IMG/VR virus record: IMGVR_UViG_3300027757_000008
Location: 1 to 53,394 of that record
From: a virus
Lineage: Duplodnaviria; Caudoviricetes
DNA length: 53,394 nucleotides
Strand: one strand, 5' to 3'
The notes beneath the pieces were generated by a model. It saw nothing but the letters and a program-made list of their open reading frames with translations. It searched no databases and was not told the origin of the DNA. The position numbers and the translations under genes were made by a program. Below are positions 3,220 through 39,027 of the stretch, piece by piece. Numbering within the stretch: position 1 is the stretch's first letter; every line of letters starts with the position of its first letter.

Positions 3220-3228
3220 TTTTGTATT

Positions 3229-3942
3229 TTATTTGCGACGGACTCCTCCGGGTAAGAATTGAAGTGCTGTATCAAGCGCCGAGTTGCCGGTGCCTGCTGC
3301 AGTCCCCGTCGCTGTTCGTATTCCGTATCGGGCCATTGCGGCAGCCTCAGATTGCTGTCGGCTCAATTGTCCGTAAGCATCGCTATAAGACATACCGGCA
3401 GACATAACCCCACCTGCGACGGACCCAAGTCCAGACTGAATATTTGCTTGCGCAGATTGCCGTGCTTGGTCAGCCATACCGAGTTCCATACGATAACGGC
3501 CTTCTTGCATTTGCTGTGCTTGCTGCTGGGCGCCTCCATAGATTTGAGAAGCCTGCATTTCGCGCTCGAATTGAGCCTGCTGAGCCTTAAACGCATCTGC
3601 GGCGGATTGCTGTGTGACAGAACCAAGACCACCAACAAGCGCACGACCTCCAGCCCTAGACAGAGCGGATACATTCGCCGCCTGACGCATTGCAATTTGC
3701 TGCGTCTGAAACTCCAAGTTGCTTCGGTCCATAGCCTTGCTGTAGAAGTCCGCATAAGCAGACGGAACGGCCAATGACGGGGCATTGGCCTTAAGTGTTT
3801 CAATCTCAGCCTTTGCCGCCTGAAGGTCTTTACGGCCCTGATACATTTGATAGATGCCGAGGCCAGCCTGTACGACGCCTCCAGCGATACCACCGGAAGC
3901 CATACCTAGGGCCTGCATTCCTAAACTATCTAATCCTGCCAT
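3229..3942 (-). CDS. Putative ejection/pilot protein (Gly/Ala/Gln-rich), 237 aa
   Basis: Hydrophobic Gly-rich N-terminus (MASGGIAGGVVQAGLGIYQ), coiled-coil middle and GG-rich C-terminus, typical of podovirus ejection proteins following the tail stabilisation gene. Confidence 0.6.
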   Translation of the reverse strand: MAGLDSLGMQALGMASGGIAGGVVQAGLGIYQMYQGRKDLQAAKAEIETLKANAPSLAVPSAYADFYSKAMDRSNLEFQTQQIAMRQAANVSALSRAGGRALVGGLGSVTQQSAADAFKAQQAQFEREMQASQIYGGAQQQAQQMQEGRYRMELGMADQARQSAQANIQSGLGSVAGGVMSAGMSYSDAYGQLSRQQSEAAAMARYGIRTATGTAAGTGNSALDTALQFLPGGVRRK

Positions 3943-3947
3943 AACTG

Positions 3948-3955
3948 CAAATATA
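3948..3955 (-). promoter_or_regulatory. Bacteroidota -7 promoter element 5 nt before ATG
   Basis: Minus strand reads TATATTTG-CAGTT-ATG. Confidence 0.7.
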
Positions 3956-3959
3956 CGAA

Positions 3960-6900: not shown

Positions 6901-8012
6901 ATGTTAGAAAGGTCAAATCGAAGAACCATCCTGCTTGACTGCCACGATGTCTTTAGGGCTGCGGGGATTGCCTTTGGAACGTATTCGTTATCGTAGTTGA
7001 CGGTGATGTTTGCACTAACCGAGCCAACATCAAACCCTTCAGTGTAGTTTCCATAAACAAGTCGTCCGGCAGAAATAGTCTGTGCTTTTGCTGTGAGTGG
7101 AACTGAATCCTGAAGTTTATTTGAATCGTTTGAAGCAAGTAACTCTCCAAGTTTATTGTTGTAGAAGTCAAAAACAACAGTTGTGTCGTTGTCCTTTTCT
7201 TCAACCAGAGAGAACGGCATAGAAGAGTTCTTCCGAACATACAGGCGAACCTTTTCTACGGCGTCAGTAGAACCTTCTACGGATACTTGTAGTTTATTAT
7301 ATAACTTACGATATCCGTCACTTGAGGATGTTGCGTTAAGGGTATTTGGGCTTGCAACCAATGGAGAGTATGCGCCAAGCGCAGACTCCTCTTTATCTCG
7401 GTATACGTACTGAGCAGCAAATTGAAACGACAAACCAATAAGGTCGTTTGAGTCAATTGAGTAGTCAGTTTGAAACTCGCAAAACGGAGTAGATGGTTGC
7501 TTTTTTACGACATTGAGTTCAATCTGCTTTTCAGAAATCGTTGACCCGGCGGGATATCCGCCAAGTTTAGCCTTTGTTACGCTTATCTTTTTGGGGTTTG
7601 AGCGACCATCAGTAAAGTACAAATACACTTCATCGTCGTAAATTACTCCATCGATATTGAGGTAGTCGTCGTTTCGGAACTCTAGGGCCGCCTCCTGCAT
7701 AAGTAAAACAACCTCTGATGAGTTTGTGTCGTACTCGTAAATGCAGTGATTATCTAAGTTGTTGTACAAAAAGATGTACACCTTGTTAACTGCGTCAAAA
7801 GAATACGTTCCAACAACTCGATTCTGCCCTATGGGTAGCGCAGTGTCAAGCGTAATTGAAGAATTTCCCTTGATGTTTTTGATAATACCTCCGTTACCGC
7901 CTTTGTCTGTAGCAACGCGAAAGTTGTTCGCATCGGCGAACTCAACACTTTGTAGGACTTTTTCGTCGCTATCCTTGTTTAGGTAACGTGGTGTAAGTTT
8001 ATCAATAGCCAT
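3960..8012 (-). CDS. Tail stabilisation/nozzle (muzzle) protein, crAss-like, 1350 aa
   Basis: N-terminal LNKDSDEK..EFADANNFRV, then YFTDG...PKKI, FQFAAQYVYRD, VPLTAKAQ...RLVYGNY, FGVVYQDKYGR and C-terminal KKEDEYF / GDPMRGHW motifs; beta-rich; follows the ring-protein genes. Confidence 0.75.
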   Translation of the reverse strand: MAIDKLTPRYLNKDSDEKVLQSVEFADANNFRVATDKGGNGGIIKNIKGNSSITLDTALPIGQNRVVGTYSFDAVNKVYIFLYNNLDNHCIYEYDTNSSEVVLLMQEAALEFRNDDYLNIDGVIYDDEVYLYFTDGRSNPKKISVTKAKLGGYPAGSTISEKQIELNVVKKQPSTPFCEFQTDYSIDSNDLIGLSFQFAAQYVYRDKEESALGAYSPLVASPNTLNATSSSDGYRKLYNKLQVSVEGSTDAVEKVRLYVRKNSSMPFSLVEEKDNDTTVVFDFYNNKLGELLASNDSNKLQDSVPLTAKAQTISAGRLVYGNYTEGFDVGSVSANITVNYDNEYVPKAIPAALKTSWQSSRMVLRFDLSNIANVPSLGGTVLFDVLVSKINSIENVSRLREIYQGTTLIASQSVYTKFSVAGFDYSAPIEVPASANRAAFAASFGSGIVSGFQNIELPVKTDELSYATRIVSGTSTYDVYYGGRVTFSATASTYTASATSAPFLGKPVLDIEFKMDEYDLISSEVILDPNGYNLPEPTYQSTAYQDNSSANPIITGTTSVTTDNSGLVDDNTYLYDSQGEQSFKTGKNHSFGVVYQDKYGRTSGVQQLGDVYVRRKSERFGNDLGSAHVNIQLTSSRPTWADKFFFVYSGNGPEFLQYQITEAFYVAGDGDRIHLALRGLQGAPNSYVDSEGSKTQYQFSEGDRLRVISYKNTTGGTVYPDGIDFKVVDLVTYEDTASSPIIPDGGATSDRDARKVGDFILIDSPTINGFSQPDVAGNLDLWANECLVEIYNKQVEVEPSVYYAIGDVYDAGSEHTAAHKIEGGDIWYRPRTIIGFEWQTAAKTNGLIDAYTEEMDTFVRFVESSRYYDFKEDTRYYSKGKPYGLIPGERKQNRYSSVTYSEPLVQDSPFNTLSSFNNGLANWYDFEANSGGIYGLVDKSNYIVLIQEDAVGFSPVNRNIIDGGTEFIGLSTDFLNQPTYMPTTCGIQDRGAFVDTDENVIFFDVQRGAVYSIGAKGLTNISNNGLKKHFSTEARTLTDFSDRVVGNSGTYEGSNTRHVRMGFDPYHGEVTISYHTLSVGASPIGGIYPFTTDYDFKSAVYSTSAGAWTHLSDVNADGYAAMNNSYFHVKNVGTANLLYEAEVNAQHAEFFGAQYDSGFTIISNRPRSGVKTFSALSIEGNAPADVTFSTLSQSSNLVAEVMTKKEDEYFSPIPRSDSGNDEWMAIGIVSSIDGNTVSFTNAVNRLPLTIGGSLWRLDSSGDLIDMSATLSSISGKNSIVVSDASLIDLDYTIVVKANSKIDGDPMRGHWLKAEFNFDNTTEQIEIFGVNVNYSDSTLHNVSGISGVEQE

Positions 8013-8017
8013 CTGGC

Positions 8018-8824
8018 TTAGTATTTAGGCGATTGGCGGAAGTTCTTCCGGATGGTAAACAATGCTTCTTCCTTGGAGAACGAATTCATACGTGCGTTTG
8101 CACGGCGCAGTTCATTGTAATACTCTTGACGAGCGCGGGCCTTTTCATTATATGGTACGTCGGACTTGCGCTCAATAATCTTATAGTAGATGTATTGACG
8201 AAGCGCCTCTTCGCAGTACACGTGGATGCTTGGATTGCTCGAAAGAGCCTCGTCGGCAACATACTCAATAGTAACCTTGTCAAGCGTGTAGTCAGTGGCA
8301 ATCTCAATTCGGTTCTGGTCGTAGTTAATTCGGAACGTTGCTTCCGCACGGCCTCCGCCATATCCGTATTGCCCACCCTCAGACGCTTCGTAAACATACT
8401 GAACGTAAGGGTAGTTTTCTGAATCTGCGCCAGTGTTTGCAATACCAGTCTTGTTATCAACGCGGTCATACACGCCGTCGTTGTTTGAGTCTACTGGGTT
8501 GCCGTTTGAGTCAGTGGCGTAAACCATAGACATATTTATATTCTTGTTCTCTTTAAACGTGTAGAACAAGCCGTCAGAGCCGCCATAGCCAATGCGAAGG
8601 AAGTCAACGAAATCGTCAGGTAACTCGACCGTTGCGTTGTCTGCATTTACGGTAAGGTTGACAGACTTAATGCGCTTCATAGCATCAAAGCCAAGTTCAC
8701 GAGCGCCTCGTAGCGCTAAATTGTGAACATAGTAGTCAGTTGCATTAGACGCATAGTCGTCTCCGCTCATACCGAGCAGAAAATCATTAACAACCTCCTT
8801 AATAGTTACTACGTTTCGTGCCAT
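8018..8824 (-). CDS. Tail ring/structural protein, 268 aa
   Basis: LPDDFVDFLRIG and IHVYCEEALRQYIYY motifs, resembling crAss-like ring proteins; synteny. Confidence 0.65.
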   Translation of the reverse strand: MARNVVTIKEVVNDFLLGMSGDDYASNATDYYVHNLALRGARELGFDAMKRIKSVNLTVNADNATVELPDDFVDFLRIGYGGSDGLFYTFKENKNINMSMVYATDSNGNPVDSNNDGVYDRVDNKTGIANTGADSENYPYVQYVYEASEGGQYGYGGGRAEATFRINYDQNRIEIATDYTLDKVTIEYVADEALSSNPSIHVYCEEALRQYIYYKIIERKSDVPYNEKARARQEYYNELRRANARMNSFSKEEALFTIRKNFRQSPKY

Positions 8825-16679: not shown

Positions 16680-17064
16680 CACAAGAGTAAACGTCAATCA
16701 CCTTGCCATCCTCTCCTATCTGTAGAACCTTGGTTCCGGATGGATAGTAGTACCACTGATTGCCACCGTTAAAGATATTACGGTTACCATCGTAGATAAA
16801 TGTGTTTGCTGCTATTGGGTCAGTTGATGAGTAGAACGTTTCTGTTTCAAAACCGGGGCCATCAATACACCCGCTTTCCCCATCGCCCGCTCCTTCTATT
16901 GTCATAGTAAAGGCAGTAAGGGAAGAATACCCATAGAATTCAGAGATGCTGTCGGGGGTTGCAAAGCCAGCAAGCCCGGAGAGGGTCCGCAGGCTATTGC
17001 TTGCAGAACCCAACTCCGTTTTTATTTGGCTGATAGATAACGCTCCGCTACTTGGTAAGGCCAT
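16675..17064 (-). CDS. Putative tail-fibre tip/adhesin accessory protein, 129 aa
   Basis: MALPSSGALSISQI..ELG...SISEFYG N-terminus typical of genes directly after S74-chaperone fibres. Confidence 0.6.
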   Translation of the reverse strand: MALPSSGALSISQIKTELGSASNSLRTLSGLAGFATPDSISEFYGYSSLTAFTMTIEGAGDGESGCIDGPGFETETFYSSTDPIAANTFIYDGNRNIFNGGNQWYYYPSGTKVLQIGEDGKVIDVYSCE

Positions 17065-20000
17065 TGATTATCTCTTTTAGTTCGTTAATCTGCTTCTGCT
17101 GCTCCTTGATAGCCTCAATTAGTACTGCGGTGAGGTTACCGTAGGATACTGAATACATACCCTCATCGTTTTGCTTGACAACCTCTGGGATGACCTCAAG
17201 GATTTCTTGAGCGATGACACCAACCTTTGTTGAGGTGTCTTCGGAGTCTGTCCGGTTGTAGGTTACACCACGAAGTTTAAGGGTCTTGTCAAGAGCGTTC
17301 TCAATGGTCTGTACGTTGGTTTTGATGCGAGCATCAGAGTAAGCGGTTACATCGCCAGAAACTGTTAGATTACCAGCATTGCTCAATATCATCAACTGTG
17401 TAGATGCAGTATTGTTATACCAATCGTATCCACCAGTTCCAAAGTTTCTTTGCCGAGCAATACCAGCATCTTGGATTAAATTCCAATAGTTGGTTCCATC
17501 ACCCATATTTAAGCCACTTGACCAAGCAACGCCAGAGGCTCCCCCATTGTCAATCCAAAGTTTACGGAATTTTGATTGGCTATTTGGGTCGCAATAGTAA
17601 TTGGTATCATCGGAGTCGTAGAAGATTGGTGCCCTCATATCACTATGGGCCTGTATGAATCCATCCACACGAAGGTTTAAGTCACCGATATCTGAAGACA
17701 TACGGAACTCACCTGCGGCTCCATACATACCGATACCGTAGTATCCCCAATCGTTGTATCCAAAGCGTAGTTTACCTCCCCAAGATGAGCCGTTGTAGTA
17801 AGGAACAACAAAGTGGTTCTGAACCTCATCATACGTTATCTCACGGATTCGTGGGGCGTAGAAGTAAGTCTTACTACCAGACACAGAGCCATAACACGTT
17901 CCGCAACGCATATGTATGAACCGGGTGTTTTCGTGCATTACGCCATCTTGGCAGGCTGCTGCTCCCGGAACATTGTTAAGGAACGATTGTGCCGTAGCCC
18001 ATCTGTCAAATTCCGTTGGCCCTTGGTTAGAAAGAGTTCTCCAGTTCTTTAAACGAGCCGTTAACTTTACCCAAGTTCCACCAGTATTTGTCTTATCGCT
18101 GTGAAAGTATGGGTTGGATGTGATGGTGGCCCCATTAGAATCTTGTTCGTGCCAGCCCATATAGACGTGGTCATCTCCAGTGCTTCTAACCCATACGCTA
18201 AATTCGTAGTCTTTTTCTGGGTCTACGTCAACATACTCTGTACCAAACCAGTTGTAACAACCGTTATTCGCCCCTGTTCCGGTTGAAACGTGTGCGTGTA
18301 CAACGGAGCCGTCAATGAATTCTATTTCCTCGTAACTGCCAGAACCATTAACGCCCATATCGGTCATACGGTGGTTTAGCGTTGCGCCTCCAAGGTTTCT
18401 TGGGTACACCGTATAGAGCCTTGATTTACTATTGGGGTCAAGGTAATACGTTGCGTCAGCAGCGTCATAAAGAATTGAGGTCCTCAATGAGGCGGGTGCC
18501 CACACATTACCAGCGGTGTCAATTTTAAATCTTTCAGTTCCCCAGTTATCGTAATTTCCAGACATATCTGGGCGGTAGCCCATATCCTGTACGATTCGGA
18601 AGTTGTCATCAGCGGAACAGTATCCAATGTTCCACCTCGTGTTACTATGCCCGGTGCTAAACTGAATAGACGGTCTATCTGCTCCATTACTTGTTCCTAT
18701 GTGAAATCTCGCTACCTGACCCCAAGAGTGGTCTCCGTGACTGCTTTCAAAACTAAATGGGATATAGTTTGATGTAGCACTCTGAGTGGACCGGAACAAG
18801 GCAACGTGACCGAATGTGCTATTTGCACGGGAAGAAATTACTTCGTGATAATTGTATGTATAGTGATTGGTTACTCCAATCTCTGACATACGAGAGTAAC
18901 CAGCAAAGTCCCCGTAGTAGCCGGTGTCAGCAGAATCATAGAAGATAGGCGCACGGAATGAACCGGGTTCATATGTATAACTTGGATGTTTTTCTAATGG
19001 TGCGTTATCGGTTCCCCCAAACAACCTTGTTATGCCATTCCCAGCGTTATTGTAGCCAATATACATACCATCTGTATATGAGTTATTTCGTATAACTCGC
19101 ATATTGGCATATACATCATTGGTGGCGGTGTCAAAATTATTCCAAACCTCTAAATGATATAGTCGTGATGTAGCACTAGGGTTTAAATAATATCCGTTAT
19201 CATCATAGTCATAAATGATTCCAAGGTATGTTGCTCCGCTATTAATTATGTTTCCGCTTACACGCAAACCACCTTCAACGTGCAGTTTTTCGCTTGGATT
19301 CGTAGTTCCAATACCTACGTTGCCAGCATCGGTAATTCGCATTTTTTCTGAAACAGAACCACCACTTGCCTTGGTGCTAAAAGTCATATGACTATTTCCG
19401 CTTCCGGGCATAATTACTCTTAATGCAGCCCAAGTTTCATTATCTGTACCCGAACTTGTCCAAGTCCACGATATACCCGTTCCTACATCAGTATTTCCTT
19501 CGCTTGTTGTTAGCCTTCGTATCTGAATGGCATCATCGTTTACAGAAGCAAACGTAAGTTGTTTGTTTGGACTATTAGTGCCAATACCTACGCTGCCGCC
19601 AATAGTAACCGTACCTGAAGAATGTGAATTTCCATTCATAAAGAATTCGTGACCATTGCCGTTACTTGGGGCATTGCCAATATAAGTATGACCATAAATC
19701 CAGTTATCATTACCCGCAGTTGTGATTCCATTAGGGAAGTATGCAGAATTAGCGGTACCCCAAGGATTGCCAATACTAACATACCCTTGAGGAGCATTAA
19801 CATCATTTAGTCGGCTTGTACCATTTGGGTTTACATAATAACTGGTATCATCAGAGTCGTAGAAGATAGGGGCTCTTAAACTCCCTTCAAATTGAGAGTA
19901 TGAACGAGTTATTCTTCCTACAATATCATAATTACCAGTTCCTGCTGTTTTAAAGAACCAGCCTGTAGAGTCATTGCTTTCCGCATATTCAACAAATGTT

Positions 20001-22234
20001 GTTTGATGTGCGCCAGTAATGGTTGGGCTGGCTGTTGTACCAGATACAGAGCCTCTAATTACTATAAAGTGGTTATTGTTATCATAACCTTTATATTGTG
20101 TATATCCTGTTGCGCTATAATTACTTGCAACATAATAAGTTCCCCTAACAGAACCTGCAACATTTAATGATATTCCCGTTGATGCAGGGTCTAAATAAAA
20201 CGCAGTATCGGCAGAGTCGTAGAAGATTGGGGCACGCATAGAATCGTTTGCTTGCCACACTCCATTATTTAAAATCCAACCAGAAGTATATGCCGCTCCA
20301 AAGTCTGAGCCACCATTACCTCTTCTAAATACCCAACCTCTTCCTGGAGTATCCATTGTAAAGTAGGTGTTGTACCCATCTCCGCTTCCAGTTGGATTAG
20401 TGAAATACCCACCATTTGATTTAAATCCAATAGCCGAAGTAGTTGTATTGCCCCCATCCCAAAAGAAAATCTGATTGCTTGTGTCGGTTGAACTTTGGTC
20501 TCCACGGATAGCAACACCGTAAACACTACTCATTCCGTTTGGGTCTACGTAGTATGTAGTATTATCAGAGTCGTAGAAGATAGGGGCACGAAAATCAGAA
20601 GTAGCGAAGGCGGTTCCATAAACGTGTAATTTATGTGAAGAAGCTGTTCCTCCTATACTAACATTACCAGCATCAGTGGCTAACTGTGTGGTTCTGTATG
20701 TTCTAAGAGATGGGTTATTGTCATCAAGTCCAGACGCAATCTTCAATGCGTTATACCATCCATCTACCCACTGAACTTGAACGTATAATGGCACACCATT
20801 TCCATCGTCCTGAGAGTACATACGTGCACCCCAGTATTCAAGGTTATTGTAGTAAGAGCCATTTTGGAATCTAATCTCGCCAAGTATTCTAGTACTAACT
20901 AGTCTTGAAGTAGAGTTTGGGTCTACGTAGTAATATGTATCATTAGAGTCATAGAAGATTGGAGACCTCATTGACACATTCGCAAACAAATTGTTGTTTA
21001 CGACAACATCAGTCTGATTTGCTGTACCAACATAACCGCCAATCGTCATCAATAATGTTTCACCAACGTCCCCATTTCCATCATTATTGGCATCTGTTGT
21101 TGGTGAATTATTGTAAAAACGAATGCCTGAATAGGACGCTCCTATTCTAACACCAGTATGATATCCTATAATTAAATCCCTATAATGTGGACCGTTCCAA
21201 CCTCCATCACCAGAGTCTAGACCCATAGAGTAATGATTTGCACCAAAACTATGACCACCACCATATCCAGAAGGGAAGTTAGTTTTTAGGTCACTGAAAA
21301 CTATTTGAGATGTAGTTGCTGAGTTACCAGCACTGCTTGCATAACTTACAGACTGACTACCGATGTTGCTTGTGGTAATAGCAGTAGAGGCGTTTTGTTT
21401 TGCATCAAGAAGTGTAGAGATATTAGCATCTGCCCAAGACATCCAAATGTTTCCATCTGTTGGAATAAAGAATCTGCGACTCCAAGAGTTATCATCAACT
21501 GTTGTTCCATAATAGAAACTAATATTATTATCATTATGAATTAGCCATTTTGAGTCGTGAGTCGTACTTCTTAATGCAATGGATGGATATGTTCCACGAA
21601 TAGTAAGTTGTTCTGCACCATAATTTCCACCGGCCCAATCATATGAAACTTTTGTGTATCCATTTAAATATGCTATACCATTAACGTGAGTAGCACCATA
21701 GGTTCTGATTGGCTGATTGGTGTAGTAGTTAAGGTAAATGTCATTACCATTATAAGAGTCAATATGAAGGTTTCCTCCAAGAGCAATTCGGCCATTACCA
21801 TTGGCTGCCCAAATATTAGTATCTGCTGTAATATCGCCAGCAGACCTAATTCCACCCGTTCCAAAACGAGTTGTGCCACCATTCCAGTTGATGTACATAG
21901 CGGTAGCACTGTCGTTATAGTACGCATTAAACTGGTCACCGCCTGTAATACGGATGTTGTAGCCATTGTCAGCAGTGTATGTCCTAAAGATGGCAGCAGT
22001 GCTATTGAACTGCGCTCTCTTTATACCACTCGTAGAAATGAAGAAGTTGTTATCTCCATTAACGTACATAACAATATTTGCTGCACTACCGCCAAAAGCC
22101 CAGTCCTCAAGTCCTAATCCTCCACGAAATGTTGAACCGTCATAAAAACGAAAGGCACCGCTATTAACTGCTGTGTCGGTATATCCAGACACATATAAAT
22201 TACCCGATACGTTAGTGCTTAAAAGATTAGCCAT
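17048..22234 (-). CDS. Modular tail fibre with C-terminal intramolecular chaperone (peptidase S74), 1728 aa
   Basis: C-terminal SDARIKTNV...LRGVTY...GVIAQE...PEVV...Y..L..VLIEAIKEQ; eight RAPIFYDS-like repeats; VGIGT.SP repeats; possible CBM-like insert (YEFSVWVRS). Confidence 0.9.
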   Translation of the reverse strand: MANLLSTNVSGNLYVSGYTDTAVNSGAFRFYDGSTFRGGLGLEDWAFGGSAANIVMYVNGDNNFFISTSGIKRAQFNSTAAIFRTYTADNGYNIRITGGDQFNAYYNDSATAMYINWNGGTTRFGTGGIRSAGDITADTNIWAANGNGRIALGGNLHIDSYNGNDIYLNYYTNQPIRTYGATHVNGIAYLNGYTKVSYDWAGGNYGAEQLTIRGTYPSIALRSTTHDSKWLIHNDNNISFYYGTTVDDNSWSRRFFIPTDGNIWMSWADANISTLLDAKQNASTAITTSNIGSQSVSYASSAGNSATTSQIVFSDLKTNFPSGYGGGHSFGANHYSMGLDSGDGGWNGPHYRDLIIGYHTGVRIGASYSGIRFYNNSPTTDANNDGNGDVGETLLMTIGGYVGTANQTDVVVNNNLFANVSMRSPIFYDSNDTYYYVDPNSTSRLVSTRILGEIRFQNGSYYNNLEYWGARMYSQDDGNGVPLYVQVQWVDGWYNALKIASGLDDNNPSLRTYRTTQLATDAGNVSIGGTASSHKLHVYGTAFATSDFRAPIFYDSDNTTYYVDPNGMSSVYGVAIRGDQSSTDTSNQIFFWDGGNTTTSAIGFKSNGGYFTNPTGSGDGYNTYFTMDTPGRGWVFRRGNGGSDFGAAYTSGWILNNGVWQANDSMRAPIFYDSADTAFYLDPASTGISLNVAGSVRGTYYVASNYSATGYTQYKGYDNNNHFIVIRGSVSGTTASPTITGAHQTTFVEYAESNDSTGWFFKTAGTGNYDIVGRITRSYSQFEGSLRAPIFYDSDDTSYYVNPNGTSRLNDVNAPQGYVSIGNPWGTANSAYFPNGITTAGNDNWIYGHTYIGNAPSNGNGHEFFMNGNSHSSGTVTIGGSVGIGTNSPNKQLTFASVNDDAIQIRRLTTSEGNTDVGTGISWTWTSSGTDNETWAALRVIMPGSGNSHMTFSTKASGGSVSEKMRITDAGNVGIGTTNPSEKLHVEGGLRVSGNIINSGATYLGIIYDYDDNGYYLNPSATSRLYHLEVWNNFDTATNDVYANMRVIRNNSYTDGMYIGYNNAGNGITRLFGGTDNAPLEKHPSYTYEPGSFRAPIFYDSADTGYYGDFAGYSRMSEIGVTNHYTYNYHEVISSRANSTFGHVALFRSTQSATSNYIPFSFESSHGDHSWGQVARFHIGTSNGADRPSIQFSTGHSNTRWNIGYCSADDNFRIVQDMGYRPDMSGNYDNWGTERFKIDTAGNVWAPASLRTSILYDAADATYYLDPNSKSRLYTVYPRNLGGATLNHRMTDMGVNGSGSYEEIEFIDGSVVHAHVSTGTGANNGCYNWFGTEYVDVDPEKDYEFSVWVRSTGDDHVYMGWHEQDSNGATITSNPYFHSDKTNTGGTWVKLTARLKNWRTLSNQGPTEFDRWATAQSFLNNVPGAAACQDGVMHENTRFIHMRCGTCYGSVSGSKTYFYAPRIREITYDEVQNHFVVPYYNGSSWGGKLRFGYNDWGYYGIGMYGAAGEFRMSSDIGDLNLRVDGFIQAHSDMRAPIFYDSDDTNYYCDPNSQSKFRKLWIDNGGASGVAWSSGLNMGDGTNYWNLIQDAGIARQRNFGTGGYDWYNNTASTQLMILSNAGNLTVSGDVTAYSDARIKTNVQTIENALDKTLKLRGVTYNRTDSEDTSTKVGVIAQEILEVIPEVVKQNDEGMYSVSYGNLTAVLIEAIKEQQKQINELKEIINGLTK

Positions 22235-22235
22235 A

Positions 22236-25200
22236 TTATTTGTTCTCTAATTTTTGGATTCTATCGGACAACTCCTTAACCGTTTGCAAAAGTAAGACTG
22301 ATAGTCTCGTGTAGTTCAGCGATTCCGCCTCTCCTTCTTCGTTATAATGTACAACCTCTGGGAAAAGTTCGGCCACCTCTTCGGCAATCAAACCTATCTC
22401 TTGTACGTCTGTTCCTATCTTGTTGTATCGTACCGGGCGCAACTTGCTAACCTTGTCTCCTACAGGCTCAAGGTCAACGATGTTCTCCTTAACACGGATA
22501 GAAGATGTCTCAAGTAATTGCCCTTGAATCTCTACATCGTATTGGAATGTTACGCTTGATGCTGCAACAATCTGTGGGTCTGTGTTAGAGGTAACCCAGT
22601 AGTTAGCGGTAGCGTGGTTACCCCAACCGTAGGCTGTGTCCCAGTTAGACTTGTTGTAGCCAGAGGCAGAGAAACCGCCACTAACAGACAGGTCTCCAGT
22701 AATAGTATGATTACCACTTGAATTGATGTAGTACTTCATACCAGAGCCAGTACCATCATTCTTGTAGATATAGAACTCGTCTTGTCTACCTACTACCTCC
22801 CACTTGTTTGCTGCTGCTGCATCTTGGAACTGAATAATGTTTCCAGTCCCTCTCAAGTACATTACACGGCTTGATGCGTCATTAGTGAAGATTGCGTGAG
22901 CAGCATTTACTTGGCCAATATTTGTGATATTGTTGCCGTTCATATTTATGCTGCCAGACATTGTACTGCCAGTCAGCGGAAGGTAAGACGTTGGATTAAA
23001 GTTTCCATCGTGCCAAACCTTTCTCCAAGGATAGAATCCGTCAGCCTCTGGCCCGTATCCCCAACCTCTAAACCAAAGTTCATCGTTGCTATATCCTCCG
23101 TATATCTGGAGGGCAGTATCAATACCTTTCGCTACAATCAGTTGACCGTAGTGTCCGGGAGCATTTGGAGGAGTTCCTTCTGCGTTATAGAATCCGGATG
23201 CAAGTATTGTATTGAAGTCGGTAGAGTATCTCGTTCCGTCTTGTCTTGTTGCAAAAACAGATGCTTGAAGTCCATCAACAGTATCAGCATCAAGTCCAGA
23301 ACCAGAACCATCGTTGCCAGAATGCCAAACTTTATCGCTATTCCAATAAAGAATACCGTCAGTACGCATCTCAAGGAACTTACCAACATTACCGCTAATG
23401 TGAAATGCGATACCTGTAGTGGTTCCATTATATGATTCAGTCCATAGGGCAGCGGTCGTGTAATCACCATTAGTCTGTGCTTTTCTTGCTTGGATATTTG
23501 CATATCCATAAATGCCTCCGTAGTTAATAAACTGACCGTCATTTCTTAATATACCCGGAGTGTATACGCCAGAAGTGTAGTGACCGCTGTTGTTTAAACG
23601 TAACCAACTGTCGTTGTTACCATCTAAAGCATTAGAACTCCCAAATAATAGTTTACCATTATACAGACTCAAATCTGTAGTTGAGCCATCACGACCTATG
23701 TATATAGGGAGTGCTTCGTTGGGGAAAATATTTAGTCCACCGTTCCAAGAGTAGAATGACCAAGTGGCGCCATTAGTGTCACTTCTTCTTATTGATAGTT
23801 GAGATGAGTCGCTTACTATATCTAATTTAGCCCCAGGACTTGCAGTGCCAATACCTACGTAGCCTGTGCTTCCTGCAATTCTCACACTCTCAAAGTATGA
23901 TGAACCGTTATGAGACCAGAAACTAATACCTTGGTCTGAACCACCTGCACCAGATACAATGCCAAGACCTACACCGCTCTGGTGGAATATACCATAATCT
24001 ACCGTAGGCACACTTCCAGCAACGCCAATTTTTATACTTTCTCCGTGGAAGGAAGGCGCTCTAAAACTTGTAGGAGCATATACATATCCAGACTCGCCAT
24101 AGTAAATCTGAAGTGCTCCGTAGCCACCGCCACCATTATTGGAGTGCGTTGTAAAATTATACGCTAAACCATTTGTTCCCTGAACTGATTGCCAAGCCCT
24201 AGAGAAGAAATTCATTGTTGTATAATCGTTCGTTTGGAAATGAGAACCGTAGTTCGTTATTCCATCTGGAACAGTCCAACCTGCATTAAGACCAACCTGT
24301 GTAGATGTATTAGCGCCTCTTCCAGTAACCGTTGCAAGTGTATCGCTCTCACCGGTGATGAAACCATAAGCCTCTACATCCGCAATAGATGCCATTTGAG
24401 CAAAGTCAACGCTGTTGCCATTAGTAATAGACAGCGTCTTTTCACCTTGGTTCCAAGTCAACTCTTGTGAGTCTGTCTCTGAAGTAAGGTATCCTTGTGC
24501 TGCTACCCAAGTGCGAGTGGCAAGAATGTCACCATTCCAAGTAGCGTTACCAGTGGTTGAAAGTCTGACTTCCGTTCCACCAGAGCCTTGAACATTGAAA
24601 ATTGCATCATTAACGTGAAGTCCACCAATTTGAACACCACTTTTATATGCAGACAATGCCCAAATCCCCTCTGCTGCGTTTACTGCAAGTTTCTCATTAG
24701 ATGCTGCATACTGACCAATTCCAAAACCGTATGTATTAACTGTAGCAACAGTTGAATAGTTTGCTTGTAGGAGGGTGTAGTTGTATCCTTCACCAATCTG
24801 TAGTTGGTCTGAGTTGCCCTCTAACGCTCTGCGCTGAACATTATTGTTATCAAAGTAGATTCTGTTATTGCCACCTGTTAGAGTTATGCCATAACCGTTA
24901 CCGTCTATTATATAATTGTTATGATGATAATGCGTTCCATATGAATGGATTAAACCACCATCGTTACCATAGTTTAAGTAAAGTGTATTTCCATTTATTA
25001 AACCAAGCACAAAGTGCGTACTGTTACCTCTAAAGTATGTTCCAGTTCCGTGGCTATTGTTACTATTAGAGATAGCAAGGTCAAGACCGGGGAAGTATGT
25101 GTAATCAGAACCAAAACGGATGCTATGGCTTGTGTAATTCGTTCCGATGTACATATAGGAAAGGGAGTTTCCATTTACTCCATATGCCCCAAGACTCTTA

Positions 25201-27317
25201 AATACAGTTCCAGAACCATTAGCGAAGGAGAAGCCATTTCTATCCCAATCTCCCCAGTTTGTATCAGTGCGATACACAAAACCACCTCCGGTTGTTTGCT
25301 CTACGGAAATAGTATTAGAGGTTAAAGAACCTCTGTTTGTAACAGTGTGTAGCGTATCACTCTCTCCCGTTATGAATCCGTAAGCCTCTACATCTTGGAC
25401 AGAAGCCATCTGACTCAAGTCAACGGTGTTCCCGTTGCTGATAGTCAATAGTTTCTCTCCCTGATTCCACTCAAGGGTTTGGGAGTCTGTCTCCGAAGTA
25501 ATGTAGCCTTGTGCTGCTACCCACGATTGAGTGGCAACATCAGCACCACTAATACGCAGATATCCATTATGGTCAAAGCCTCCGTGACCAACAGTGACAA
25601 GAGTATTAATATCATTTCCAGCCTTGTGCTGAATTGCGTTAGACGTTAGGTCATCAAAGAGTAATGAACCAGTGGTCTTTAGAACTCCGTTTACAAGTAA
25701 GTTATCGTTTACTGTTACATCACCACCATCGTTACTAATACCACCTCTTGCAATGATGTGGTCGTCAAAGTAGACATTGCTATATCCAAAGAAATGCAAG
25801 TACCCACCGGCAACACTTCGTATAGAGTTTGCTCCAGTTCCGCCATTGAAAAATATTCCGTTTCCTCCAATTGTAACTCCGTTGCTTAATATTGCGTCTT
25901 CACCGTAAAAGTTTGATGCAACTACATTAGAGTTGTATACAATATGCTCTGAAGGAATCTCTGTTCCTGCGGTTTGAGATGTGTCGTAAAGAGTCCATCC
26001 ACCGCCTTCTTGAAGTTCCCATCTTCCGCCATCCCAAGTGGTTCTGTAGTATTGCAACTCGTATTCACGGACACCATCCTCTTGTCTTGTGAGAACTACA
26101 CGGACCTTATCTCCAAATCCAGTTTTATTGGTAGATGTAGTTACTATGTTTACACGGAGAGTGTGCGATTCATTATTACTCAAGAAGTCACATTCAGCAC
26201 GAGCCGTAATGTGAATCTTATATGCTGTATTTAAGTAATAACTTAAATCACGGTACTCACCAAACAAATTCATTGATTGGCAGTTTCCATTAAGAACAAC
26301 CTTTGCAATCTTATACCAAGCCTCTGGGTCTGGATAAGCGTATGAATGGGAACCTTGAGTGTGGTTAAGAACCCTCCCTATGTATAATCCTGAGTGGTTA
26401 CCCCAACCATAAGCAGTATCCCAGTTAGATGCATTGTTCGTGGTCGTGTACCAAGAGGAGGCTGTGTAGATGGGGTCGGTCTCCGTGTACGTAGTGAGGT
26501 ATCCAGCCTCAGAGTGGTCACCCCAACCAAAAGCGGTATTCCAATTTGTTATATCAGCAGTCCTGACACTGTAAACATCAGAAGCAGCGAATACAGGGTC
26601 TGTCTCAGTGTAAGATGTAAGATACCCTTGCTGACCTACCCAAGTCTCCGTAGCGTAGCCCGTAAGGTCTGTAGTGACCACCTGCCACGTACCATCACCA
26701 CGTAAGAACTTACCGCCATCATCAAAACCCGAGGCTGGGACGAATCCATTCTCTCCGGCAACGATGACCTCTTCTCCGTTTACAATACCTGAAGTGGCCT
26801 GCGTAAAGACGCTATGCGTGTGAATTAAATTAGCATACAGCCCAGCGTGGTTACCCCATCCGTAAGCCGTATCCCAATTGCTAGCGTTGTTTGTAGTAGT
26901 ATACCAAGAAGATGCGGTATAGATAGGGTCGGTCTCTGTGTAAGATGTTAGAAAGTTAGGTGCCCAGTTGACCCAATTAGAGCCGTTCCAACTAAGCAGA
27001 TTCCCAACAGCGACAGAATTAATAGATACATCACCAAGTGCGTTAATAGATGACGCCGGAGTAAGGTAGTTTGGTGTCTTGTTGTACCAAATGTTAACAC
27101 CTGGGGTTCCTCCGACCGGCTGTCCGTAAACAAGAATTTGGTCAGCGGATGGACTTGTAATAACTACATCCGTGAGAGAATCTAGGTTGCCAGCAGATAC
27201 GCTACTCACATAGTCTGTCCCCTCAACTGCCTTAACTATTTTTCCGTCTGAATCAACTTTTAAGATTCCAGATGAAATCGTAGTTAATACAACGTCGCTT
27301 AAAAACTTTTGAGACAT
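22236..27317 (-). CDS. Modular tail fibre with C-terminal S74 chaperone, 1693 aa
   Basis: SSIRVKENI...LRPVRY...IGLIAEEVAELFPEVV...LNY; NWDTAYGWGNH and YTETDP repeats; WHSGNDGSGSGLDAD.VDG fibre motif. Confidence 0.9.
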   Translation of the reverse strand: MSQKFLSDVVLTTISSGILKVDSDGKIVKAVEGTDYVSSVSAGNLDSLTDVVITSPSADQILVYGQPVGGTPGVNIWYNKTPNYLTPASSINALGDVSINSVAVGNLLSWNGSNWVNWAPNFLTSYTETDPIYTASSWYTTTNNASNWDTAYGWGNHAGLYANLIHTHSVFTQATSGIVNGEEVIVAGENGFVPASGFDDGGKFLRGDGTWQVVTTDLTGYATETWVGQQGYLTSYTETDPVFAASDVYSVRTADITNWNTAFGWGDHSEAGYLTTYTETDPIYTASSWYTTTNNASNWDTAYGWGNHSGLYIGRVLNHTQGSHSYAYPDPEAWYKIAKVVLNGNCQSMNLFGEYRDLSYYLNTAYKIHITARAECDFLSNNESHTLRVNIVTTSTNKTGFGDKVRVVLTRQEDGVREYELQYYRTTWDGGRWELQEGGGWTLYDTSQTAGTEIPSEHIVYNSNVVASNFYGEDAILSNGVTIGGNGIFFNGGTGANSIRSVAGGYLHFFGYSNVYFDDHIIARGGISNDGGDVTVNDNLLVNGVLKTTGSLLFDDLTSNAIQHKAGNDINTLVTVGHGGFDHNGYLRISGADVATQSWVAAQGYITSETDSQTLEWNQGEKLLTISNGNTVDLSQMASVQDVEAYGFITGESDTLHTVTNRGSLTSNTISVEQTTGGGFVYRTDTNWGDWDRNGFSFANGSGTVFKSLGAYGVNGNSLSYMYIGTNYTSHSIRFGSDYTYFPGLDLAISNSNNSHGTGTYFRGNSTHFVLGLINGNTLYLNYGNDGGLIHSYGTHYHHNNYIIDGNGYGITLTGGNNRIYFDNNNVQRRALEGNSDQLQIGEGYNYTLLQANYSTVATVNTYGFGIGQYAASNEKLAVNAAEGIWALSAYKSGVQIGGLHVNDAIFNVQGSGGTEVRLSTTGNATWNGDILATRTWVAAQGYLTSETDSQELTWNQGEKTLSITNGNSVDFAQMASIADVEAYGFITGESDTLATVTGRGANTSTQVGLNAGWTVPDGITNYGSHFQTNDYTTMNFFSRAWQSVQGTNGLAYNFTTHSNNGGGGYGALQIYYGESGYVYAPTSFRAPSFHGESIKIGVAGSVPTVDYGIFHQSGVGLGIVSGAGGSDQGISFWSHNGSSYFESVRIAGSTGYVGIGTASPGAKLDIVSDSSQLSIRRSDTNGATWSFYSWNGGLNIFPNEALPIYIGRDGSTTDLSLYNGKLLFGSSNALDGNNDSWLRLNNSGHYTSGVYTPGILRNDGQFINYGGIYGYANIQARKAQTNGDYTTAALWTESYNGTTTGIAFHISGNVGKFLEMRTDGILYWNSDKVWHSGNDGSGSGLDADTVDGLQASVFATRQDGTRYSTDFNTILASGFYNAEGTPPNAPGHYGQLIVAKGIDTALQIYGGYSNDELWFRGWGYGPEADGFYPWRKVWHDGNFNPTSYLPLTGSTMSGSINMNGNNITNIGQVNAAHAIFTNDASSRVMYLRGTGNIIQFQDAAAANKWEVVGRQDEFYIYKNDGTGSGMKYYINSSGNHTITGDLSVSGGFSASGYNKSNWDTAYGWGNHATANYWVTSNTDPQIVAASSVTFQYDVEIQGQLLETSSIRVKENIVDLEPVGDKVSKLRPVRYNKIGTDVQEIGLIAEEVAELFPEVVHYNEEGEAESLNYTRLSVLLLQTVKELSDRIQKLENK

Positions 27318-35953: not shown

Positions 35954-36206
35954 CCCCGCCGCGAACTGGGAACGCTAATCAATACTGCGTATGTGATTAA
36001 CACCACAACAACAACTGCAACATCTGTTCAAAACCATTACCGTTTTGTTTATTACTTTTGTCGTAACTTCGCAAAGTGGCAACGGAGTAACAACATAAAG
36101 AAGTCAACAGCGTCTTCAGTCACTCCCCCTTCTGAGTGAGTGTCACCCACGACACGACCACTCGCCACACAGTCAAAATCACCCCATACTATACCCCGTT
36201 CACAAC

Positions 36207-36228
36207 AGGCCCCGAGAGGGGCCTTTTT
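36207..36228 (+). terminator. Intrinsic terminator
   Basis: AGGCCCC-GAGA-GGGGCCT followed by TTTT. Confidence 0.75.
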
Positions 36229-36229
36229 C

Positions 36230-36925
36230 GTGTTCCTAAAACTCCCGATATACACCATTAAATAGGAAATCTAAGTCTCAACCCCACCGGGCCCAATTGC
36301 CTCCAGGAAACCCAAAAAAAAGTACCAAAAAAGGGGGATATAAACGTAAATCCTGTAGAGTTATACGTGCCTGCGGGATTCTACAGCGGCGCCAACGTTC
36401 ACGCGCGCAACCCGAAACGGATTTCCAAACCCCACCCCCTGACCCCCAGGCGTTTGCCCAAAATAGTTTGGCGATTTTCATTTGATGTTTAAACACGAAC
36501 TACCCCCCCGGTCGATTCAATCGGTACCCTACCCCCCTTCCGAAACGATTGTCTGCCTTCCCCCTAAAGTTTTGAAATGAGTGCAGTCATTCACACATAC
36601 GGAACTATCCCCCACGCCATCTATCCTCCCCTGTCCTGTGTCCTGTATCCTCCCCCTGTCTACCTGATTGGGGTAAGTCCGCCCCCGGTGCAGTGGTGAT
36701 ATATGTACCCATTTGCGGCCGTGTGTGCATAACCCGGGCCTAACTTCTGCCCCTGGATGCTCTCCAGGAACGCTCTCCAGTTCTCCAGGAACGCAGTTTG
36801 CCCCCGATTTGGGTGGTGCTGACCTGGAGCGGGTGAAATTTCTGAAAATTTTTTTCCTTCGGAAACCCTTTGGTGGCGCGGGTTTGGTGGGGGCGGCGAA
36901 AAAAAAGTGAAAAAAGTTTGGGGGA
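36230..36925. other. Non-coding, homopolymer- and repeat-rich region; candidate genome end/packaging or origin region
   Basis: No credible ORF; C-runs then G/A-runs; direct repeats TCTCCAGGAACGC x2 and TATCCTCCCC.TGTC x2; lies between the late arm and the early promoter. Confidence 0.45.
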
Positions 36926-36928
36926 AAG

Positions 36929-36959
36929 TTTGGTGGGTAAGAAATCCTGACTACATTTG
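36929..36959 (+). promoter_or_regulatory. Strong early host-RNAP promoter (-33 TTTG, 19-nt spacer, -7 TACATTTG) with upstream A-tracts
   Basis: Exact match to the Bacteroidota sigma-A consensus. Confidence 0.85.
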
Positions 36960-36961
36960 TA

Positions 36962-37535
36962 TCAGAGTCAAGGACGACGCCGGCGAGACCGGGACATAAG
37001 AAGGCCGACTGACTCCTCCCCGAGGCCGCAAGGCTGACGCCGCAAGGTGCCGGAGAGACCCGACGAGAGAGCGGGTGAGCGGGGGGCCGACCACAGCCCC
37101 ATACCGCCAAGCCATAAGCCCGATGTAGCAGTCAAATGGTTCCTCTCTCCATCGTCTTACACATAAAGGTGCGCGACGACTGACCCCGAGCGCGGCGGTG
37201 ATTGAGTCCTTCATCACCGACCGCGGCGTTCTGCCGCTCGGACAATCAGTCAACGCCGTTGATAGTAAGCCGGGGGGAGCGCCTTGGCGCATTGGAACCA
37301 AGTTCATATCCCCGGACGAACAGGGAAACGCCCGGTGATAGACGATGCTTTAGGGGCGACGAAAATCCCTCTGCGACCTTCTCATAACCAAGGATATGAT
37401 GAACACGATATTAGGACAGGCCTAACGCAGACCACATATAGTACTCACATTCCCCTACTGACCTCCTCTTCCAAAGGTGGCGCTCCGACTCTCACTACGA
37501 GATGGACGGACATCGGTTCGCGACCGGCGTCACCA
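36962..37535 (+). ncRNA. Large structured leader/ncRNA (~570 nt), family not recognised
   Basis: GC-rich; starts at the early promoter; many nested helices with GCAA/GAGA loops; long-range CATCGTCT/AGACGATG pairing; 3' tRNA-like domain. Confidence 0.7.
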
Positions 37536-37573
37536 CTACTTAAATTCACTCACTCACTAACCCCCCCCGAGTT

Positions 37574-37780
37574 ATGCGTTTCATTCCCGCTAAAGAATCT
37601 GATTTGTTCAAGTTGTCTTGCACTACCCGCAAATCTTCAAGCCGTACCACATCCGGCGCCAAGTACATTGCTAACGACCGCGGCCTTGTATCCAAGGCTA
37701 AAATTCAGTTTGTTAAAGATGCGATTGAAACTGAAGAGAATATCTTCGTGAATTCACGCCTTGTTTATGTCTGTAAATAA
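37574..37780 (+). CDS. Early hypothetical protein, 68 aa
   Basis: First ORF after the leader RNA. Confidence 0.55.
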   Translation: MRFIPAKESDLFKLSCTTRKSSSRTTSGAKYIANDRGLVSKAKIQFVKDAIETEENIFVNSRLVYVCK

Positions 37781-37787
37781 TCTACCT

Positions 37788-37859
37788 ATGAAAAAAGACC
37801 AATTGCTTGTTCTTGCGATTATCGCTATTGTTTCTCTCGTTGTATCGGCTTGTGCCTAA
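37788..37859 (+). CDS. 23-aa lipoprotein-signal-like peptide (MKKDQLLVLAIIAIVSLVVSACA)
   Basis: Read manually; basic n-region, hydrophobic h-region, lipobox VSAC; fills the intergenic gap. Confidence 0.5.
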   Translation: MKKDQLLVLAIIAIVSLVVSACA

Positions 37860-37871
37860 ACCCCCTGTGAT

Positions 37872-38066
37872 ATGAAAACATTCTATGTTTATTCCGTTGA
37901 CGCCAAAGGTGACATCGTTTCCGTCAAATACGGAATCAAAGCGAAATCTCGTCTTGATGCTATTGAGCAATCAAATGTAGAGAAAGTATATTGGGAAGGT
38001 GCCCGCCCATACGGCGTATCGTACATCGGAAGCAAGTTTAAGATGTACGCAAAACTGCAAGGTTAA
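37872..38066 (+). CDS. Early hypothetical protein, 64 aa
   Basis: Its stop codon forms part of stem I of hammerhead 1. Confidence 0.6.
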   Translation: MKTFYVYSVDAKGDIVSVKYGIKAKSRLDAIEQSNVEKVYWEGARPYGVSYIGSKFKMYAKLQG

Positions 38067-38111
38067 CTGATGATGGGTTTAGTACCCGAAACGCCGTGAG
38101 GCGTCTTAACC
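38061..38111 (+). ncRNA. Type I hammerhead ribozyme, copy 1 (predicted cleavage after C38105)
   Basis: GGTTAA-CTGATGA-T-GGGT(TTAGT)ACCC-GAAA-CGCC(GTGA)GGCG-TC-TTAACC. Confidence 0.85.
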
Positions 38112-38153
38112 AATATGAACCGATGCTTCCGCATCACAATACCCCCCTTTGCT

Positions 38154-38387
38154 ATGACTTTCCTTTGCAAAACTGAAGTAGAATTCTCTACCGCGCTCCG
38201 CGCCTTGGCTCTTGACTTTTTGTTCAAAAAGCGTGATGCTGATGAAACTAAATCTTTAGTTCACGCCTACCTTGGGCAGAATCGCCGCCACTACCCTAAA
38301 GATGCGGCCTTTTGGACTGACCACTTCCGCTCATTGTTTACGAACGATGGTGGTTCACTTACCCGGGCCGCGGCTACGGGTAACTAA
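38154..38387 (+). CDS. Hypothetical protein enclosed by the two hammerheads (77 aa from ATG 38154; 90 aa from 38115)
   Basis: Open frame; the downstream ATG is preferred because 38117-38140 is a repeated leader hairpin. Confidence 0.6.
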   Translation: MTFLCKTEVEFSTALRALALDFLFKKRDADETKSLVHAYLGQNRRHYPKDAAFWTDHFRSLFTNDGGSLTRAAATGN

Positions 38388-38389
38388 CA

Positions 38390-38442
38390 GGTTAACTGAT
38401 GATGGCTTGAATAGCCGAAACGCCCTACGGGGCGTCTTAACC
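38390..38442 (+). ncRNA. Type I hammerhead ribozyme, copy 2 (predicted cleavage after C38436)
   Basis: GGTTAA-CTGATGA-T-GGCT(TGAAT)AGCC-GAAA-CGCCC(TACG)GGGCG-TC-TTAACC; compensatory change in stem II relative to copy 1. Confidence 0.85.
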
Positions 38443-38458
38443 AATAAATCTACAAAAG

Positions 38459-38821
38459 ATGAGCCGTTATGCTATTGACCGAAACACTGACTTCGTTAAG
38501 TTGGTTGTTAAGTTTGAGTTTGATTACAATATCACTCCTGTTACCTTCGTATGCCTACAACACGAAGGTCGCCTTCCCGAACTATCCCGTGTAGGTTCAC
38601 GCCGGGGGCTACACGACAACAAAGATTTTGATAGCGACTACAAGAAGTTCGCAGAGGCTTTGTTCAGTAACTACTTCGCCGCACAACGCGAGGATGTTGA
38701 GATTAAAATCAGCGCCGAGCGTTTCGTGTGGAGCGAAAAGCACAATTGGGTGATTGGTCAACCAATGCCCGAAGTTAATTCTCTTGATAAAATTGTTGAC
38801 ATCCTAACATCTCGCGCCTAA
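38459..38821 (+). CDS. Early hypothetical protein, 120 aa
   Basis: ORF track; A-rich initiation region. Confidence 0.6.
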   Translation: MSRYAIDRNTDFVKLVVKFEFDYNITPVTFVCLQHEGRLPELSRVGSRRGLHDNKDFDSDYKKFAEALFSNYFAAQREDVEIKISAERFVWSEKHNWVIGQPMPEVNSLDKIVDILTSRA

Positions 38822-39027
38822 TGGACTTTATTCTTATTCACGCCATCCCCGCCGCACTTGCCGGCCTGTTAGTATTCGGTGAGGCTTTCATCTCAAAGCC
38901 CACCAAGAAAGTAGCACCACGGGTGCATTACATCACCAAGCCTTGCCGCTACGGCGACGAAGTTTGTTCAGTAACCATCAAGTACATCGATGGTATTCAA
39001 GTTGGTTCACGATTAAATCTTAAATAA
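38821..39027 (+). CDS. Small membrane-anchored protein, 68 aa
   Basis: Hydrophobic N-terminus; stop/start overlap. Confidence 0.55.
   Translation: MDFILIHAIPAALAGLLVFGEAFISKPTKKVAPRVHYITKPCRYGDEVCSVTIKYIDGIQVGSRLNLK

Follow-up and report, generated by a model that had tools for sequence, protein, structure and literature searches.

The window analysed here, which is the whole of an IMG/VR virus record (53,394 bases, estimated to be 88% complete), carries two hammerhead ribozymes, HH1 and HH2, and both are members of a very large family of intercistronic hammerheads, of which we found more than 400 copies in IMG/VR viral contigs. HH1 and HH2 are probably active and punctuate an early, rightward polycistronic mRNA. 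The basis for this reading is a set of observations, namely the motifs, their conservation, their covariation and their fixed placement relative to stop and start codons, from which we infer catalysis in vivo and an effect on the stability and the translation of the mRNA.

Gene context of the two hammerheads

The minus strand of the record carries the terminase, portal and structural genes. In the structural arm, two giant ORFs (1728 and 1693 aa) lie next to each other (17048-27317, minus strand). The rightward arm, from about 35450, contains small unknown genes and genes for ThyX, a PDDEXK-domain protein, a sigma-like protein and a primase-helicase; HH1 and HH2 are located near its start. The terminase is 40-46% identical to the terminases of an uncultured Caudoviricetes record and of Flavobacterium and Cellulophaga phages, and a Bacteroidota host may be supposed. 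All 20 runs found to hold the phage (20 of 20) are DNA runs of marine metagenomes.

HH1 and HH2 bracket one small gene. Upstream, an ORF of 64 aa (37872-38066, plus strand) ends with a TAA codon at 38064-38066, inside stem I of HH1. The bracketed gene (38154-38387, plus strand) encodes a conserved protein of 77 aa with seven homologous clusters and an invariant C-terminus. Its start is supported by the homologues: among the six that we aligned, four of 74-77 aa start opposite M14 and two start one residue earlier. The longest ORF, which starts at 38115 and would give 90 aa, was rejected because the homologues place the start at ATG 38154. Downstream, an ORF of 120 aa (38459-38821, plus strand) begins with an ATG 22 nt past the cleavage site of HH2. 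Neither the 64-aa ORF nor the 77-aa protein matched a Pfam or PHROG family. With the 120-aa, 77-aa and 64-aa proteins as queries, no IMG/VR relative was confirmed, and blastn of positions 37700-38900 against the INPHARED phages gave no match. A scan for promoters and terminators gave counts near the shuffle expectation and flagged neither hammerhead.

Between the two gene arms, we also noticed a stretch of about 1.8 kb (35954-37750) whose GC content rises to 0.65, against 0.40-0.48 nearby, and which contains C-rich and G-rich runs. No credible ORF was found in it under table 11, table 4 or TAG=Q. It had no Rfam match, blastn of 35960-37760 against INPHARED found none either, and its fold was not in excess of the expected stability on the two strands (z = +0.07 and -0.55). 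An origin or packaging region and decayed DNA are possibilities for this stretch.

Sequence and fold of HH1 and HH2

HH1 occupies positions 38061-38111 and HH2 positions 38390-38442, both on the plus strand, and each was assigned from its core, its fold and a generic scanner. The 5' strand of stem I, GGTTAA (38061-38066 in HH1 and 38390-38395 in HH2), is followed by CTGATGA (38067-38073 and 38396-38402) and by one extra T (38074 and 38403). Stem II, which differs by one compensatory pair, is GGGT/ACCC in HH1 and GGCT/AGCC in HH2, with loops TTAGT and TGAAT, respectively. Then come GAAA (38088-38091 and 38417-38420), stem III (CGCC/GGCG with a GTGA loop in HH1, CGCCC/GGGCG with a TACG loop in HH2), the GTC cleavage triplet, with predicted cuts at C38105/U38106 and C38436/U38437, and the 3' strand of stem I, TTAACC (38106-38111 and 38437-38442).

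Stem I is open while stems II and III are closed by loops, which is the type I topology. Both copies have the core of the hammerhead class, C3-U4-G5-A6-N7-G8-A9 with G12-A13-A14, and GUC as the N-U-H triplet (H being any base but G) 5' of stem I. A regular hammerhead core has no insertion, but HH1 and HH2 each carry one extra U between A9 and G10.1. A preliminary description of this DNA had already reported two complete type I hammerheads with CTGATGA, GAAA and GTC, identical stems I with a compensatory change in stem II, differing tetraloops on stem III (GTGA and TACG), an extra U after A9 in both copies and the upstream stop codon within the first copy; all of this can be read directly from the sequence.

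When each element was folded alone, the minimum free energy (MFE) structure was the three-way junction, at -15.9 kcal/mol for HH1 (7 of 200 shuffles were as good) and at -19.7 kcal/mol for HH2 (0 of 200). We also used a generic type I scanner of our own, which relies on the core and the three stems and holds no family-specific sequence: it needs CUGANGA, an optional extra base, stem II, GAAA, a stem III closed by A-U, a base other than G at position 17 and a stem I of at least 4 bp. Run over the record (53,394 bases) on both strands, it returned exactly two sites, HH1 and HH2, with no hammerhead on the minus strand, and it found 0 sites in 200 dinucleotide shuffles of the record. A simpler pattern, CTGATGA-N6-30-GAAAC, gave 2 matches where 0.20 were expected, and only 1 of 100 shuffles reached 2. 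On the evidence of sequence and conservation, HH1 and HH2 are supported as real, evolutionarily maintained hammerheads.

A large family with covarying stems

Two samples of the family were drawn from IMG/VR. The first used a pattern in which only CUGAUGA, GUC and the four innermost pairs of stem I were fixed, and covered at least 119 IMG/VR stretches. Among the 147 matches listed, 123 had GAAA and fitting stems II and III; 24 of the 145 matches with full flanks were not hammerheads. From this sample we built an alignment of 54 sequences, made of HH1, HH2 and 52 of the 63 distinct copies with a core length of 27-32. In it, 99.6% of the cells are paired, against 76.2% after shuffling, and 176 cells are changed on both sides, against 43.6 after shuffling, a value that 0 of 500 shuffles equalled; two-sided changes occur at 9 of the 16 pairs. 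Eleven copies had been dropped by hand, four as near-duplicates and seven because their stem lengths were irregular, so these figures may be slightly flattered.

The second sample was drawn with a pattern on stem II that left stem I free, which matched at least 120 IMG/VR stretches, and was searched with the dedicated model R1. It gave 147 R1 hits, 135 of them distinct, with 99.3% of the cells paired against 66.0% after shuffling; this alignment was fitted to R1 and is therefore biased towards the structure, the slid controls being 31-40% paired. In this sample, 14 of the 16 pairs show two-sided changes and all six pairs of stem I covary. The only invariant pairs are G10.1-C11.1 and A15.1-U16.1, both of which are fixed in the hammerhead consensus. 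Stem I varies across the family, GGUUAA being one of many variants, and the cleavage triplet is GUC in 126 of 141 copies. Covariation had been named in the preliminary description as a way to check the two ribozymes, and we observed massive compensatory change in the family, with 99% of the stem positions paired. Because the stems covary around an invariant core, selection must act on the RNA fold, beyond DNA identity.

In the record itself, R1 scores HH2 at 76.1 bits and HH1 at 69.6 bits, values that are high by construction since both sequences are in the R1 training alignment. The next best site scores 14.3 bits, and the record therefore holds just two hammerheads.

A search with the Rfam hammerhead models, suggested at the outset as well, did not recover them: at the gathering thresholds of Rfam 15 we obtained 0 matches on the window, and no match either on eight family loci with canonical copies, that is without the extra U. 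R1 recovers the IMG/VR copies of the family at 40-78 bits, whereas the Rfam thresholds detect none of the eight loci tried. In E-value mode, HH2 gave a weak match to RAGATH-1-hammerhead (RF03152, known here from the Rfam output alone), at 20.1 bits and E=1, the gathering score being 56.3. The two share the core and the type I topology, and HH2 with its upstream hairpin aligns to the model end to end; on the other hand, HH1 has no match and HH2 stays far under the gathering score.

This upstream hairpin (TACCCG...CGGGTA, 38360-38382, plus strand) lies within the codons for the invariant C-terminus of the 77-aa protein. In the alignment to the RAGATH-1 model it falls on the extra 5' hairpin, an observation of uncertain significance. 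Its stem is kept, without covariation, in the relative L125 described below, and homologues with only about 50% identity still have the same C-terminal residues. The hairpin and the invariant C-terminus could reflect a double constraint, from RNA and from protein.

Placement relative to stop and start codons

The first sample contained 150 hammerheads in 84 of 123 sources, with 1-7 copies per locus and strand, and the second contained 142 hammerheads in 93 of 98 loci, with 1-9 copies per locus and strand. The copies are always on the coding strand, and in neither sample did we find a locus with hammerheads on both strands. The densest array that we saw has ten R1 hits within about 6.3 kb (locus L186, about 2289-8609, plus strand).

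The stop codon of the upstream gene is mostly either inside the ribozyme, where the UAA of GGUUAA or a UGA of CUGAUGA serves as stop, or a few nucleotides away at most. On the other side, the next ATG follows the cleavage site at 19-27 nt in 169 of 270 non-redundant copies, and the same holds for 7 of 270 random positions on the same strand; the ORF caller behind these family statistics is crude and accepts as a start the first ATG with an open frame of 35 codons or more. Adjacent copies are spaced by 179 to 2847 nt. The non-redundant adjacent pairs number 109, of which 52 surround a single ORF, 51 at least two and 6 none; one bracketed gene, as in the window, is therefore ordinary for the family.

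HH2 follows this rule: it begins 2 nt past the stop codon of the 77-aa gene, its cut is 49 nt after that stop, and the 22 nt from the cut to the next ATG are the typical spacing. The cut of HH1 is 48 nt from ATG 38154 and 9 nt from ATG 38115, both outside the usual 19-27 nt.

The extra U and folding in context

An extra base after A9 is present in 24 of the 150 copies of the first sample and in 2 of the 142 copies of the second. Among 141 non-redundant family copies, the extra nucleotide is U in 20 of 22 cases. Copies with the extra U occur in more than 12 contigs, often several per contig, with an intact core and covarying stems. The extra U is a recurrent, maintained variant, as judged from the sequences.

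The same position is occupied in the (+) hammerhead of CChMVd, which has a one-nucleotide insertion between A9 and G10.1 as in HH1 and HH2; it differs in coming from a viroid, in its type III context and in its natural extra residue, which is A (PMC3705267, PMC1636495). When this extra A10 was changed to U, the rate of trans-cleavage rose three- to fourfold (PMC3705267, citing De la Pena and Flores 2001; also PMC1636495). By this analogy we take the extra U as compatible with activity; it would lower the certainty about the rate and leave the fold unchanged.

Folding was also predicted in the context of the transcript. With 50-100 nt of flanking sequence on both sides, the MFE structure differs from the hammerhead for HH1 and HH2; the fold constrained to the hammerhead is 0.4-5.6 kcal/mol worse and its predicted probability goes down to 0.0003. 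When the 3' flank is left out, the hammerhead fold comes within 0-2.9 kcal/mol of the MFE. With only upstream sequence, the hammerhead is the MFE structure of HH2 with 50-100 nt and lies 1.4 kcal/mol above it with 200 nt, and for HH1 it lies 1.1-2.9 kcal/mol above. Since the MFE structure with flanks is not the hammerhead, the activity of HH1 and HH2 would depend on co-transcriptional folding or on tertiary contacts, which the energy model used in these predictions ignores. It is plausible, on these models, that the hammerheads fold on the nascent transcript.

[quoted passage not shown] In the family, loop II has 5 nt in 105 of 141 copies, its commonest forms starting and ending with U, and stem I has 6 bp in 129 of 141. 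Stem I is flanked on its 5' side by A in 125 of 141 copies and on its 3' side by AA in 101 of 141.

A relative without HH1

One metagenome scan yielded a single relative, L125, whose copy of the 77-aa protein is 76% identical. In L125 the gene for a small hydrophobic peptide, located before the 64-aa ORF in the window, is directly followed by the 77-aa gene, and the 64-aa ORF and HH1 are absent. The peptide gene itself encodes about 23 aa ending in Cys-Ala and is conserved between the window (37788-37859) and L125 (128-196). The missing block is about 278 nt long (37866-38143, plus strand; the 64-aa ORF, HH1 and 32 nt) and is replaced by 5 nt in L125. In the pairwise alignment, both of its edges carry ACCCC(C). 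The orthologue of HH2 is found at L125:467-546, with 67.9 bits for R1; it lacks the extra U, and its longer stem III shows a compensatory change of C-G to U-A. The gene past it is unrelated to the 120-aa ORF of the window.

As L125 lacks HH1, the twin bracket is not conserved around the 77-aa gene, and since L125 differs both by the 64-aa/HH1 block and by the downstream gene, the hammerheads are placed at mosaic boundaries. Contigs of four DNA metagenome runs showed no variation at the locus. What further contigs of the same metagenomes share with it is limited to hammerhead segments or cassette edges, in different flanks; one of them matches the 64-aa ORF over its first 20 nt, continues with 185 dissimilar letters where the window has 186, and then matches the 3' part of HH1.

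The predicted excised RNA and alternative readings

Double cleavage would release an RNA of 331 nt (38106-38436, plus strand) that starts with UUAACC, ends with GUC and contains one whole ORF, and on this geometry the preliminary description was right. In the predicted fold of this RNA (-102.3 kcal/mol, z = -4.98, a stability equalled by 0 of 100 shuffles), nucleotides 1-6 pair with the GGUUAA of HH2. The idea that the joined ends would rebuild a hammerhead agrees with this model, in which the MFE structure forms a nicked hammerhead with the two ends adjacent.

It had been proposed from there that the fragment is a protein-coding circular RNA. Such a circle would be closed by the reverse hammerhead reaction or by an RtcB-type ligase of the host and then translated. 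We consider such a circular mRNA highly improbable. The stems I of HH1 and HH2 are identical, and the predicted MFE structure places both ends of the excised RNA in the rebuilt hammerhead. The chemistry of the ends is also suitable, 5'-OH and 2',3'-cyclic phosphate being the ends that RtcB joins, and RtcB is common in the bacteria of our control set, Bacteroides included. Furthermore, 21 of 49 adjacent pairs within contigs are end-compatible, against a mean of 3.2 and a maximum of 10 for random pairs across contigs (1000 shuffles); these pairs are from the second sample, which is less biased as stem I was not selected. However, the remaining 28 of the 49 are incompatible, and in contigs with three or more copies the adjacent pairs are no more compatible than the non-adjacent ones (34 of 48 against 39 of 50, and 8 of 30 against 13 of 45), the excess over random pairs being due to the likeness by shared descent of copies within one genome. 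L125 retains the 77-aa gene and HH2 without HH1, so that this gene needs no circle, and as the fragment has its own stop codon and a ribosome-loading region, circularity would bring no obvious translational gain. No RtcB (PF01139) was found in the record, estimated to be 88% complete. Both the layout and the circle are already in Perreault 2011 (PMC3088659): in the available text of that paper the circular RNA is raised as an idea, and neither spliced nor circular products were detected from such clusters (data not shown there). Our literature search returned no specific paper on phage hammerhead circles or on phage circular RNA. Retrozymes, viroids and satellite RNAs are comparable in that hammerheads of the same polarity bound a rejoinable unit with the same end chemistry, but they are non-coding, strongly self-complementary RNA replicons or retroelements, whereas the window has a protein-coding segment of a dsDNA phage operon. 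Such elements are recognised by a non-coding unit and, in the case of viroid-like RNAs, by ribozymes of both polarities, and here we found a conserved 77-aa ORF and hammerheads on the plus strand only. If it did exist, the circle would be a translated, exonuclease-proof mRNA from which a dsDNA phage expresses the 77-aa protein, and circles, if ever found, would be the first for a DNA phage.

Another reading, which we hold to be unlikely, holds that the hammerheads persist mainly at the DNA level, where these conserved segments, about 55 bp long and placed at the borders of genes, would mark or promote the exchange of small cassettes, RNA cleavage being secondary. It would account for the 64-aa ORF and HH1 forming one block that is absent from L125, for the different genes past HH2 in the window and in L125, and for contigs of the same metagenomes that share hammerhead segments only; but the edges of the indel are at ACCCC(C) repeats, outside the hammerheads, contigs of the four DNA runs contain no joint between HH1 and HH2, and all three stems show compensatory changes around an invariant catalytic core. 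Exchange of cassettes is in any case compatible with punctuation and does not replace it. It is very unlikely, in turn, that the extra U kills catalysis and that the hairpins serve as 3'-end stabilisers, RNase sites or translational barriers. The insertion in the core is indeed unusual at the frequencies given above, and the HH2 orthologue of L125 lacks it. Against this, the copies with the extra U have retained every core nucleotide, U is tolerated and even favourable at this position in the CChMVd (+) hammerhead (PMC3705267, in the part available), both sites lack a T-run, and the terminator scan was silent at each of them.

Probable punctuation of an early operon

We thus return to punctuation of the early mRNA, which the preliminary description had kept as a fallback and which the family-wide placement at stop and start codons favours. 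HH1 and HH2 would cut the nascent transcript between cistrons, HH1 downstream of the stop codon of the 64-aa gene and HH2 between the 77-aa gene and the next start. Following established hammerhead chemistry, we infer 5'-OH and 2',3'-cyclic phosphate ends. The upstream mRNA would be left with stems II and III as two stable 3' hairpins, capped by GNRA or UNCG loops, and with a 2',3'-cyclic phosphate, and the downstream mRNA with a 5'-OH and a short, A/U-rich, unstructured leader. The likely pay-off would be to make the stability and translation of neighbouring genes independent of each other. Small gene cassettes could also enter the operon and bring their own punctuation.

This organisation has a precedent. 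Perreault 2011 described same-strand hammerheads that flank single genes or short blocks in prophages (PMC3088659), and the window has the same arrangement, with two same-strand copies 331 nt apart, one gene between them, in a phage record that also holds terminase, portal and primase-helicase genes. According to the text available of that study, all members of three prophage clusters cleaved in vitro, cleavage was seen during in vitro transcription of polycistronic fragments of about 2 kb, one triple set cleaved in E. coli, and a processing of long phage transcripts into gene-length mRNAs was proposed (PMC3088659). The tested cases were prophages of Clostridium, Azorhizobium and Agrobacterium, whereas the phage studied here is uncultured and marine; compared with that set through the text of the paper, HH1 and HH2 stand out as type I, with an open stem I of 6 bp and an extra U (PMC3088659). 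A 2019 review, in its available part, still calls the purpose of phage hammerheads undefined (PMC6765202). No later paper specific to this phage hammerhead sub-family or to its function was returned by our literature search.

HH1 and HH2 would be a natural counterpart of the synthetic insulator RiboJ (for example PMC6206723), made of the sTRSV hammerhead and a hairpin. Placed upstream of a ribosome-loading region, RiboJ likewise strips off the RNA that precedes it and so defines the 5' end. RiboJ is engineered, whereas HH1 and HH2 are natural, lie between cistrons and overlap with the upstream stop codon in the case of HH1.

Phage hammerheads that punctuate operons were thus already described in 2011, and the instance in the window is ordinary. 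What the family picture adds is an abundant type I sub-family in environmental phages, which is missed by the Rfam thresholds, with a stereotyped placement relative to stop and start codons and arrays of up to ten copies per locus. This regular placement makes the insulator idea testable by reporters, for which HH1 and HH2, with their extra U, would be convenient cases.
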